Below, piece by piece: positions 22,194-26,434 of a DNA stretch of 64,000 nt. The position numbers and the translations under genes were made by a program. The notes beneath the pieces are model-generated. The model was not told where the DNA came from and searched no databases. It saw only the letters and a program-made list of their open reading frames with translations. The stretch is from a phage, in the NCBI GenBank assembly GCA_012178725.1, contig GCA_012178725.1_3030.1. One strand, 5' to 3'. The stretch's first letter is position 1. Each line of letters opens with the position of its first letter.

Positions 22194-22472
22194 TCAAAAT
22201 GAAATTTCTAACCAATCGCCGTCACGCTGATCACTATTGACTTTAAAATTAAATCCTTCTTTTCTCAGCCAATCACCAATTTCTTCAGTAATCAATTTAT
22301 CGCGAGCAGTACAATAATAACTAAAATATGTTTTACCTTGTTCAGCTGCTTTATTAGCAAGTTCTGAAAAATCTTTAATAAAACACTCTAGCTTAAACTG
22401 TTTACTTTTTAATGCTTTTTCACGTAATTGATTAGCAAAAGATTCATTTTCATAAAGATCATACTGTTCCAT
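22194..22472 (-). CDS. Hypothetical protein (between rnlB and hoc)
   Basis: 92 aa ORF, coupled to neighbours. Confidence 0.55.
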   Translation of the reverse strand: MEQYDLYENESFANQLREKALKSKQFKLECFIKDFSELANKAAEQGKTYFSYYCTARDKLITEEIGDWLRKEGFNFKVNSDQRDGDWLEISF

Positions 22473-22674
22473 TTTTCACCTTTTTATTAATATGTCTTTT
22501 TCTATAGACAACTTTTTCTCGAGTTTCAAATCTATTCTTAGCAGTCATAGCTCGAGCCCATAATACAGCCACTTCTTTTGCCTGTAAGTTCAATTCACGA
22601 GCAATTTCAATGAATGACTTTCCAGACTCATGGAGAGTAAACACCACAACCTCAGTTCTCATAATCAATCTCAT
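22459..22674 (-). CDS. Hypothetical small protein with helix-turn-helix-like segment
   Basis: 71 aa; ESGKSFIEIARELNLQAKEVAVLWARA resembles an HTH. Confidence 0.5.
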   Translation of the reverse strand: MRLIMRTEVVVFTLHESGKSFIEIARELNLQAKEVAVLWARAMTAKNRFETREKVVYRKRHINKKVKNGTV

Positions 22675-22763: not shown

Positions 22764-24182
22764 TTATGGATAGGTATAGACGATACCAGTTTCTAAAGCA
22801 GTTTTATGAATGATGTATCCATTACGTGATTCTTGAACATCAACTTCTGGATAGTCTTTCATCATCTTCTGGAGAGTGTAACGATGCAAGTAGTACTTAC
22901 TATCTGGATCGTCAGTTTTCCAATCTTTACCTTCTTCAGTCATTTTTTGGATTTCATCCATAACCCACCAACCGCACCAGATGTAAGCTGAAGTACGATG
23001 TGGAAGAGGATGAACATAAGGCAATTCACCTTCTGGCTCTGGAGCAACTTTATCAGTCACTTGAACTTGACCTTCTGCTGTAATAGTTTTGCTATCATAA
23101 TCAGCAGCAGTAACAGTTGCAGTAACTTCAATAGTTTGACTTCCAATAGATGAGGTATCAACGGTATATACATTAGTTGACCCTTCTACAGGAGAAGAAT
23201 CTTTCTTCCATGAATACGCAATTTGCGCTTCTTCTGGAGCATCAGTGACATTAGCAGTAAATGTAGCCGAAGCATCTTGTTGAACGTTAATAGAAGGAGG
23301 AGTCAATGTAACCTGTGGATTCATTGTCTTCTTATTAACTGTTAATGATACTTCATTCGAAGTAACTTCCTTTTCATTGTAATTTTCAGCAGTTACTTGG
23401 GCTACGCATTTAATTCTTTTTACTCCACTTGTAGTTGGAGTATAGATAAATGTAGAGTTAGTTTCTCCACCAACTTGTGAATCATCTACATACCACTGAT
23501 ACGTAGCAGATGCTCCATCAGGTTGAGAAGCTAAGGCAGCAGTAAATTGAACTAGTGTTCCAATTACTCCAGCTGAAGGACTATCGGGAGTTACTGCCAA
23601 AGTAGTTGTCTGTGTCTTTTTATTAACAGTCAATGACACTTCATTAGAAGTAACTTCTTTTGCATCATAATCTGTCGCGGTTACTTGAGCCACACACTTG
23701 ATTGTTTTAACTCCGCTTGTGTCAGGAGTGTAATTGAATGTAGCGCTAGTCGCTTCGCTCACAGGAGAACCGTCAACGTACCATTGATACGTAGCAGATG
23801 CGCCTGATGGCTGCGAAGCCAAAGCAGCGGTAAATTCAACAGCTGTTCCGATTACTCCTTCCGGAGGACTATTAGGAGTTACAGCTAAGGTAGTCGTTTG
23901 TGTCTTATTTTGAACTGTGATAGTTGTACTAATTTCAGCTGTTTCGGGACTACTATCGGCAACTTGATTTGTTGCAACTACTTTAATAGTCTTTTGACCG
24001 GCAGGTCCTTTTAATACATAACTAAAAGTTGCTTCAGCCCCATCTTGTGGAACATCATCTACAGTCCAAGCATATGTAATAGGTCCATCTCCAGTTTGAC
24101 CACTGGGCGTAGCAGTAAACTGCTGAGTCTGATCTATAACTCCAGTAGGTGTTTTAGGAGTTATATCAACTGTAAAAGCCAT
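22764..24182 (-). CDS. hoc: Hoc (highly immunogenic outer capsid protein), four Ig-like domains plus capsid-binding C-terminus
   Basis: 472 aa; repeated about 96-aa Ig-like units; position between rnlB and inh. Confidence 0.9.
   Translation of the reverse strand: MAFTVDITPKTPTGVIDQTQQFTATPSGQTGDGPITYAWTVDDVPQDGAEATFSYVLKGPAGQKTIKVVATNQVADSSPETAEISTTITVQNKTQTTTLAVTPNSPPEGVIGTAVEFTAALASQPSGASATYQWYVDGSPVSEATSATFNYTPDTSGVKTIKCVAQVTATDYDAKEVTSNEVSLTVNKKTQTTTLAVTPDSPSAGVIGTLVQFTAALASQPDGASATYQWYVDDSQVGGETNSTFIYTPTTSGVKRIKCVAQVTAENYNEKEVTSNEVSLTVNKKTMNPQVTLTPPSINVQQDASATFTANVTDAPEEAQIAYSWKKDSSPVEGSTNVYTVDTSSIGSQTIEVTATVTAADYDSKTITAEGQVQVTDKVAPEPEGELPYVHPLPHRTSAYIWCGWWVMDEIQKMTEEGKDWKTDDPDSKYYLHRYTLQKMMKDYPEVDVQESRNGYIIHKTALETGIVYTYP
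23322..23897 (-). repeat. Tandem direct duplication (2 x 288 bp) inside hoc encoding two near-identical Ig-like domains
   Basis: Protein residues 96-191 and 192-287 are near-identical (TTTLAVTP...SNEVSLTVNKKT). Confidence 0.85.
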
Positions 24183-24191
24183 AAGTTATCC

Positions 24192-24872
24192 TTATTTTAA
24201 TGTTACGAAAGAAGAATTGCGTGTTTCACGAATTAAAACTGATCCGTCACGGTTAATGTAATAAATTAAGCTAAATAATGTTTGGTGTGCAGAAGCATGC
24301 TCAAAACTAGTTGGGTGAGATTTCCAATCCGGAGTTTCAGCGATCCATTGATAAATCCACCAAGGAACAGTACAGAATCCTGGATTTTTTCCAATCAACT
24401 GAAGATTCGGGCTAAAGTTTTCCGGAAGAGTAAATACACACGGCTTTTCAGATTCAATAATCTCAGCTACAGCCTGTTCGAATTTTTCTTCAACAAAAGG
24501 AGTATCTTCAATCAAAACATCGGTATTTTCAGGAATTTTATCCGTTTCTACTACTTCAATTTTAATGTCAGATTTAACTGGAGAATCAATCAAAAGTGCT
24601 GCTTCTGGATTGACTTCTTCATCGTCATATTTTAATCCCTCTGCAGCATCAGCAGCATCAATTAAGTCTTTAATAGATAACCCATCAGTCTCTGGCATAG
24701 GTTCACTAGCGAGCTTCTGGAGAGCTTCTTCAATATCAACAACGATATTATCAAAAGATTTATTCTTTTTGACCTTTATACCAAACTGTTCAGCATATTC
24801 AGCTAATTTAGCTTTAGCTTCTTTGTTATCATCAAGAGCCTTCAGCTCTGCAATATAATCTTTATCTATCAT
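24192..24872 (-). CDS. inh: Inh-like protein (inhibitor of prohead protease), positional assignment
   Basis: 226 aa acidic protein between hoc and uvsW. Confidence 0.65.
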   Translation of the reverse strand: MIDKDYIAELKALDDNKEAKAKLAEYAEQFGIKVKKNKSFDNIVVDIEEALQKLASEPMPETDGLSIKDLIDAADAAEGLKYDDEEVNPEAALLIDSPVKSDIKIEVVETDKIPENTDVLIEDTPFVEEKFEQAVAEIIESEKPCVFTLPENFSPNLQLIGKNPGFCTVPWWIYQWIAETPDWKSHPTSFEHASAHQTLFSLIYYINRDGSVLIRETRNSSFVTLK

Positions 24873-24886
24873 AATATTTCCTCAGT

Positions 24887-24894
24887 ATAAATAT
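24887..24894 (+). promoter_or_regulatory. Late promoter core TATAAATA upstream of uvsW
   Basis: Exact motif. Confidence 0.55.
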
Positions 24895-24922
24895 AGATAT
24901 ATTTATTACATGGTATTTAGAC

Positions 24923-26434
24923 ATGACTGACATTAAAGTACATTTTTATGATTTTAGTCACGTGAGAATTGATTGTGAAGAAAGTACATTTCATGAACTC
25001 CGTGATTTCTTTAGCTTTGAAGCTGATGGGTATCGTTTTAATCCGAAATACAAATATGGCCACTGGGATGGACGAATCCGTCTTTTAGATTATAATCGTC
25101 TTCTTCCATTCGGCTTAGTCGGGCAAATTAAAAAGTTCTGTGATAACTTTGGCTATAAAGCCTGGATTGACCCGCAAATTAATGAAAAAGAAGAATTATC
25201 AAGAAAAGATTTTGATGAATGGCTTTCTAAATTAGAAATCTATTCAGGAAATAAAAGAATTGAACCGCACTGGTATCAAAAAGATGCAGTGTTCGAAGGA
25301 TTAGTTAATCGTCGTAGAATTCTTAATCTTCCAACATCCGCTGGTAAATCGTTAATTCAAGCTTTGCTTGCGCGATATTATTTGGAAAATTATGAAGGTA
25401 AAATTCTTATCATTGTTCCAACAACTGCCTTAACAACTCAGATGGCTGATGACTTCGTCGACTATCGTCTATTCAGTCATGCAATGATAAAGAAAATTGG
25501 TGGCGGAGCATCAAAAGATGATAAATATAAAAATGATGCACCAGTCGTTGTTGGTACATGGCAAACTGTAGTTAAACAACCGAAAGAATGGTTCTCACAG
25601 TTTGGAATGATGATGAATGATGAATGTCATCTTGCTACAGGAAAAAGTATTTCATCCATCATATCAGGTTTAAATAACTGCATGTTTAAATTTGGTCTAT
25701 CTGGTTCATTACGTGATGGCAAAGCCAATATCATGCAGTATGTTGGAATGTTTGGTGAAATATTTAAACCAGTAACGACTTCTAAATTAATGGAAGATGG
25801 ACAAGTAACTGAGCTAAAAATTAATAGTATTTTTCTTCGCTATCCCGATGAGTTCACTACTAAATTAAAGGGAAAAACTTATCAAGAAGAAATAAAAATT
25901 ATTACTGGGCTTAGTAAAAGAAATAAATGGATCGCTAAATTAGCTATTAAGCTTGCGCAAAAAGATGAAAACGCTTTTGTCATGTTTAAACATGTATCAC
26001 ATGGTAAAGCTATTTTCGATTTAATTAAAAATGAATACGATAAAGTTTATTACGTATCAGGGGAAGTTGATACCGAAACCCGCAATATAATGAAAACCTT
26101 AGCTGAAAATGGTAAAGGAATAATTATAGTAGCTAGTTATGGTGTATTTTCTACTGGTATTTCAGTTAAAAATCTGCATCACGTTGTTTTAGCGCACGGT
26201 GTTAAATCAAAAATCATTGTATTACAAACAATCGGTCGTGTATTACGTAAGCATGGTTCTAAGACAATAGCAACTGTCTGGGACCTCATAGATGATTGTG
26301 GTGTTAAGCCAAAATCTGCTAATACGAAAAAGAAATATGTTCATTTGAACTATCTTTTAAAACACGGCATTGATCGTATTCAGCGCTACGCAGATGAAAA
26401 ATTTAATTACGTAATGAAAACAGTTAATTTATAA
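24923..26434 (+). CDS. uvsW: UvsW helicase (SF2 recombination/repair helicase)
   Basis: 503 aa; Walker A PTSAGKS and DEAH-like NDECH. Confidence 0.95.
   Translation: MTDIKVHFYDFSHVRIDCEESTFHELRDFFSFEADGYRFNPKYKYGHWDGRIRLLDYNRLLPFGLVGQIKKFCDNFGYKAWIDPQINEKEELSRKDFDEWLSKLEIYSGNKRIEPHWYQKDAVFEGLVNRRRILNLPTSAGKSLIQALLARYYLENYEGKILIIVPTTALTTQMADDFVDYRLFSHAMIKKIGGGASKDDKYKNDAPVVVGTWQTVVKQPKEWFSQFGMMMNDECHLATGKSISSIISGLNNCMFKFGLSGSLRDGKANIMQYVGMFGEIFKPVTTSKLMEDGQVTELKINSIFLRYPDEFTTKLKGKTYQEEIKIITGLSKRNKWIAKLAIKLAQKDENAFVMFKHVSHGKAIFDLIKNEYDKVYYVSGEVDTETRNIMKTLAENGKGIIIVASYGVFSTGISVKNLHHVVLAHGVKSKIIVLQTIGRVLRKHGSKTIATVWDLIDDCGVKPKSANTKKKYVHLNYLLKHGIDRIQRYADEKFNYVMKTVNL

Follow-up and report, generated by a model that had tools for sequence, protein, structure and literature searches.

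The extra Ig-like domain of a 472-aa Hoc in a T4-like phage appears to be an old, position-specific paralogue of domain 2

The capsid decoration protein Hoc encoded in the window, as we call the whole 64,000-nucleotide stretch of phage DNA analysed here, has four Ig-like domains instead of the three of T4 Hoc. Read from the N terminus, it consists of domain 1 (D1), a type A unit of domain 2 (D2), a type B unit of D2, domain 3 (D3) and the capsid-binding domain. Very probably the additional unit is an ancient domain 2 paralogue, and the window gene represents one allele in a length polymorphism that spans the genus. As judged from sequence comparisons, the extra domain occupies the same position in many phages, and belongs to a genus-wide copy-number series in which segments have been exchanged between units.

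The initial annotation named the gene hoc and gave its product 472 aa, and both points stand. When the product of the ORF at 22764..24182 was compared with the PDB by phmmer, T4 Hoc (376 aa) was the sole match, with E = 1.2e-219. The gene and its neighbours are as follows.

24192..24872, minus strand: inh homologue (prohead protease inhibitor), 226 aa, adjoining hoc upstream, with the size and position of T4 inh
22764..24182, minus strand: hoc coding sequence, 472 aa plus stop
22459..22674, minus strand: gene 24.3 homologue, 71 aa, adjoining hoc downstream, at the same position as in T4
22194..22472: small ORF past the gene 24.3 homologue, followed by a 334-aa ORF

The ORF order equals that of the T4 annotation (inh - hoc - 24.3 - 24.2 - rnlB), and the annotation of phage MLF4 agrees too. 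Thus hoc lies where it is expected, in the head gene region between inh and 24.3/24.2/rnlB. The inh homologue and the annotated gene of MLF4 are 95-100% identical. At the position of the gene 24.3 homologue, both MLF4 and Kelasse have a 216-bp hypothetical gene; the homologue is 71 aa in the window and 56 aa in T4. The homing-endonuclease gene segE is absent between inh (24192..24872) and uvsW (24923..26434), that is, from 24873..24922. T4 has segE there, and MLF4 lacks it like the window. On the strand opposite to hoc, the ORF list contains no overlapping ORF of 60 aa or more.

At the nucleotide level, the window hoc is 98.5% identical to that of Shigella phage A2 and 88% identical to that of T4, and the surrounding ~24 kb is ~97% identical to several Tequatrovirus genomes. 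The source of the window is a Tequatrovirus (T4-like) phage.

The protein divides into five parts, listed here from the N terminus with coordinates on the minus strand.

23898..24182, minus strand: Ig-like domain D1, aa 1-95, aligning with T4 Hoc 1-95; pLDDT ~85-93
23610..23897, minus strand: repeat unit 1 (type A), Ig/PKD-like, extra relative to T4, aa 96-191; Pfam PKD; pLDDT >90
23322..23609, minus strand: repeat unit 2 (type B), Ig/PKD-like, counterpart of T4 domain 2, aa 192-287; Pfam PKD, best stretch 195-267
23055..23321, minus strand: Ig-like domain, counterpart of T4 D3, aa 288-376, aligning with T4 Hoc 192-280; pLDDT ~90
22767..23054, minus strand: linker plus the C-terminal domain that binds the capsid, aa 377-472, almost identical to T4 Hoc 281-376

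The phmmer alignment with T4 Hoc falls into two parts, window residues 1-113 with T4 1-113 and window residues 189-472 with T4 93-376; because of this split, one unit is skipped. Pfam reports PKD above threshold on two stretches inside the units and Ig_3 / I-set at 289-373, with an Ig_2 match as well. An AlphaFold model made with 36 homologues has four beta-sandwich domains at about 4-91, 98-187, 194-283 and 290-376 with pLDDT mostly >90, and low confidence in the C-terminal domain. The best PDB matches of the model by Foldseek are four-Ig-domain fragments, for example those of Dscam1 and ICAM-5 D1-D4. Pfam, AlphaFold and Foldseek thus agree on an N-terminal linear string of Ig-like domains. 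The initial annotation had counted four Ig-like domains in addition to a capsid-binding C-terminus, one domain more than in T4 Hoc; domain prediction and the T4 alignment bear out this count. A T4 Hoc of 472 aa with four Ig units of its own is ruled out, as T4 Hoc has 376 aa and a single unit.

Hoc of T4-like phages is characteristically bound as one molecule in the middle of each gp23 hexamer, and is dispensable for growth. The window protein keeps the capsid-binding C-terminal domain (residues 377-472, corresponding to T4 281-376). Its residues Y389, H391, H395, R396, W405 and W406 are invariant across 36 aligned sequences, and correspond to Y293, H295, H299, R300, W309 and W310 of T4 Hoc, which have been named capsid-contact or conserved residues (PMC10385173). 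The window Hoc would accordingly be placed by its unchanged C-terminal domain, which probably attaches it at the gp23 hexamer centres.

The extra domain is encoded in a tandem array. Two repeat finders located a direct repeat of 2 x 288 nt at 23325-23900 (TRF score 680), which in protein register is 23322..23897, codons 96-287. Each unit equals exactly one 96-aa domain in frame, and the two units align without gaps. The two adjacent in-frame units at aa 96-191 and 192-287 had been noted at the outset, and the repeat finders reproduce them.

The copies had also been called near-identical and their duplication recent, and neither description survives. The units share 215 of 288 nucleotides (74.7%) and 75 of 96 residues (78%), with 17 nt as the longest exact run in common. 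This is far beyond chance (z = 16.8), as random pairs of 288-mers drawn from the window (n=20,000) are 27.0 ± 2.8% identical with a maximum of 39%. Third codon positions hold 47 of the 73 nucleotide differences, and 38 codons differ synonymously only. By the Nei-Gojobori method, pS is 0.65, near saturation, dS is ~1.49 and dN is 0.137, giving dN/dS of ~0.09. Between the window and T4, D1 has a dS of 0.27, unit 2 compared with T4 domain 2 one of 0.23, and D3 with the C-terminus one of 0.30. Because dS is ~1.5 between the units and 0.23-0.30 between the phages, the split of the units is several times older than that of the window phage and T4. From these substitution patterns, both unit types appear to have been kept under purifying selection for far longer than the phages carrying them have been diverging.

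The other Ig domains of the protein are much more distant. In register, the neighbouring domains are 16% (D1 against unit 1) and 7% identical to the units in amino acids. When a profile of the units was run on a closely related 472-aa Hoc (L002), it gave weak matches to D1 and D3 with E of ~1e-9 to 1e-11, that to D1 being ~1e-11.

It is very improbable that domain 2 was duplicated recently in this lineage, leaving near-identical copies in an unstable array whose copy number varies in the population. Such an event would fit units that are adjacent, in frame, equal in length and ungapped, as well as related phages that differ in copy number. However, the copies are 74.7% identical in nucleotides with dS of ~1.5 and no exact run above 17 nt, which is not the near-identity, above all at synonymous sites, that a recent tandem duplication leaves. 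Nor are they each other's closest relatives or missing from close relatives: units cluster by position, unit 1 having 83-100% identity with first units in other phages but 75% with its own neighbour, and roughly one in three sequenced Tequatrovirus genomes shows the identical architecture.

It is known that tandem repeats can be misassembled, and a second unit could in principle come from a repeat collapsed or expanded by the assembler. The probability of this is close to nil, as 73 of 288 positions differ, so that short reads place the units unambiguously, the reading frame is intact, and the arrangement recurs at 90-98.5% identity in many independently sequenced genomes. The initial annotation had allowed for such an artefact; it does not apply to copies that are 25% diverged and are found in many independent assemblies.

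The relationships among units were examined with 171 units from 122 proteins, which were cut with a unit HMM and then clustered. The units sort into three main types according to their position in the protein and not according to the phage. Type A comprises the first units of 30 of 31 two-unit proteins and of all nine three-unit proteins. Type B comprises most second units and most single units, that of T4 included, and type C most last units of three-unit proteins. The architectures are B (64), A-B (26), C (9), A (8), A-B-C (6), A-C (3) and a few others. The order of the types is fixed, with A first, B next and C last. The same position-wise clustering was obtained at the DNA level with 32 units from 18 genes (17 GenBank phages and the window).

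In nucleotides, window unit 1 shares 83-100% with first units in other multi-unit hoc genes, 77% with T4 domain 2 and 75% with the unit 2 beside it. Window unit 2 shares 90-99% with the other type B units and 90% with T4 domain 2. Because unit 1 matches other first units while unit 2 matches T4 domain 2, the duplication is older than the spread of these phages.

Some units are mosaic. Painting was based on 17-18 diagnostic sites that separate first from later units. In the single unit of T4, as in the middle units of three-unit genes, a type A patch at nt 224-240 lies in a type B background, and the single units of RB33, Shinka and MLF4 are A/B chimeras. The single units of RB3 and HY03 are pure B, and that of L005 (IMG/VR) is essentially pure A. 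Type A, type B and mosaic single-unit genes together point to long-term unequal recombination and gene conversion. A simple tree of units is unreliable because of this mosaicism, and a single-unit hoc could be either ancestral or derived by deletion.

MLF4 has one unit only. Its flanking genes are 95-100% identical to those of the window, and the D1-D2 part of its hoc 84-91%. Compared with MLF4, the window segment 23300..24100, covering D1 and the D2-type part, is a local divergence hot spot with a length difference of 288 nt. A 567-aa Hoc from a Logan assembly (P0054) is mosaic as well: its D1 is T4-like and its first unit of type A, but the next two Ig units are far more diverged, and a diverged D3 and the conserved C-terminus come after them.

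On the mechanism, the copy number may shift through unequal homologous recombination between units, and the unit content through short gene-conversion tracts between them. T-even phages recombine very actively, and for that reason mixed infections would be the most likely setting for recombination between units.

The tandem could also have been put together from separate alleles. A and B would have diverged as single-unit alleles, and a single unequal crossover between co-infecting phages would later have placed them head to tail, so that the tandem is younger than the A/B split but older than the window phage. Pure type A single-unit genes (L005; type A in 8 of 82 single-unit sequences) do exist beside pure type B ones (RB3, HY03), and exchange between unit types is frequent. 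On the other hand, the fixed A-B-C order in two-, three- and four-unit genes equally fits an old array that has been losing units. Single type A genes finish on the M residue found before D3, as deletion from A-B would give and as expected from a crossover deletion in the conserved 3′ end. We consider the joining of alleles possible but on the unlikely side.

A broader scheme, which we hold still more tentatively, takes hoc as a recombining cassette array. One to four position-specific A, B and C units would be reshuffled between co-infecting phages, with selection by mucosal niche acting on fibre length or glycan-binding valency, and the near-saturated synonymous divergence of adjacent units perhaps favoured as a guard against recombinational collapse.

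Returning to the old domain 2 paralogue as the preferred reading, its array is not expected to change copy number frequently within one stock. Efficient T4 recombination requires homology on the order of 50 bp, and the window units share at most 17 nt of perfect homology. The long repeat had been proposed as a recombination substrate, but with 75% identity and a longest run of 17 nt it is a poor one for frequent present-day exchange. Over evolutionary time exchange has occurred, as the mosaic units attest.

The length forms of hoc were surveyed in a search that returned 659 phage GenBank records, 60 of which were sampled at even steps down the ranking, and in the 120 best-scoring protein clusters; the counts refer to these two sets rather than to all genomes. 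In the GenBank sample, ~19 of 60 records have hoc in a single piece of ~1419 bp, most others have 1131 bp as T4 does, and two are longer. Judged from this evenly spaced sample, the four-Ig form would make up roughly one third of sequenced Tequatrovirus genomes. Of the protein clusters, 30 have 472 or 468 aa, 9 have 567-570 aa and 81 have 371-377 aa. When a 568-aa Hoc was used in tblastn, ~23 GenBank records matched at full length over ~1.7 kb; of these records, at least those of the slur03 group have four units.

These forms make a series of one, two, three or four D2-type units, corresponding to 376, 472, 568 or 664 aa. As T4-size, 1419-bp, 568-aa and 664-aa (slur03) forms all occur, the unit number ranges genus-wide from one to four. 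The earlier expectation that copy number may vary in the population is therefore partly upheld: it varies between phages of the genus (1-4 units), the only level at which variation was seen.

Several records stand out in this survey. Escherichia phage slur03 (LN881728.1 60366-62360) has the longest Tequatrovirus form found here, a 664-aa Hoc with four D2-type units and six Ig-like domains. The T4_ev151 record (LR597660.1 107091-108794) has a three-unit, 568-aa hoc, unlike reference T4. In Escherichia phage FriedrichMiescher (MZ501066.1 13298-14714) and in NHEP10, the annotation splits hoc in two ('Hoc part 1 / part 2'), a sign that a four-Ig gene may be interrupted or frameshifted there. In Escherichia phage T2 (MH751506.1 105371-106687), the hoc region carries no gene annotation; it is open for 62 codons and then frameshifts, the remaining Hoc being recoverable in other frames. 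T2 is not known to have Hoc, and the frameshifted region fits this.

Compared with known systems, the window protein is a known family member and an ordinary variant, in a form that has been deposited many times. T4 Hoc (UniProt P18056; PDB 5VF3 and others) shares the gene position with it, D1, D2, D3 and the C-terminal domain align, and the capsid-contact residues are conserved. The difference is the extra 96-aa type A Ig-like domain, which lies between D1 and the T4-like D2 and raises the length from 376 to 472 aa. The 472-aa Hoc proteins of Shigella phage A2 (OP197928), the Escherichia phages AdolfPortmann, teqhal and slur04, and Serratia phage PhiZZ30 have the same four Ig domains in A-B order at 94-98.5% nucleotide identity. 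They are annotated as Hoc-like head decoration, capsid whisker or PKD domain proteins, and differ from the window by point differences, A2 also having one extra alanine in the D3-equivalent domain. UGKSEcP1 and YUEEL01 (568 aa each) and slur03 (664 aa) belong to the same unit family, with type A first and the remainder near-identical, but have one or two more D2-type units, the last one being of type C, a type absent from the window.

More distant Hoc proteins vary in the same general manner. Among 650 Hoc homologues, which are mostly strings of Ig-like domains, Serratia phage Muldoon reaches the maximum of 10 Ig domains (Fokine et al. 2023; PMC10385173). Hoc of PNJ-9 is without D3 and has 283 aa (Fu et al. 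2024; PMC11853027). Like the window protein, Hoc of PNJ-9, Muldoon and RB49 (PDB 3SHS) combines a string of Ig-like domains with a conserved capsid-binding domain, and the domain number varies between phages. However, their best-matching segments are 33-61% identical to the window, and their extra or missing domains are not of type A or type B. An IMG/VR scan yielded 21 loci, few of them from Tequatrovirus, and was used as an outgroup view, the unit DNA being taken from GenBank records; its relatives from more distant T4-like phages have two, three or four Ig domains.

Variation in the number of Hoc Ig domains among T4-like phages is thus already published. In a literature search for the 472-aa A-B variant, general statements on variable domain number were all that turned up, and in that on Hoc the fixed A-B-C order and the mosaic D2-type units were not found described. 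We regard this order and mosaic structure as an incremental addition. The discovery value is small, since four-Ig Hoc has been deposited many times and domain-number variation has been published. For work on Hoc display, vaccines or mucus adherence, however, the three-Ig layout of T4 is not safe to assume in other Tequatrovirus, roughly one third of which have a longer fibre. The natural series of one to four D2-type units is ready material for relating fibre length and valency to mucus binding, particle dispersion and antigenicity.

The T4 Hoc fibre is 180 Å long, with three Ig-like domains and the capsid-binding domain (PMC10385173). If this length is split equally over the four domains, the window fibre would be longer by one Ig domain, roughly +45 Å.

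Published binding data conflict on which domain is key. D1 is the binding domain of PNJ-6 Hoc, domain 2 of which did not bind (PMC11150434), S183-L184-T185 in D2 are needed for MUC2 binding in PNJ-9 Hoc, and D246 of D3 is implicated in evolved T4 Hoc (PMC11853027 for both). The S-L-T motif is kept in both units of the window, at S183-T185 and S279-T281, and a doubled D2-type binding surface is therefore possible in the window Hoc.
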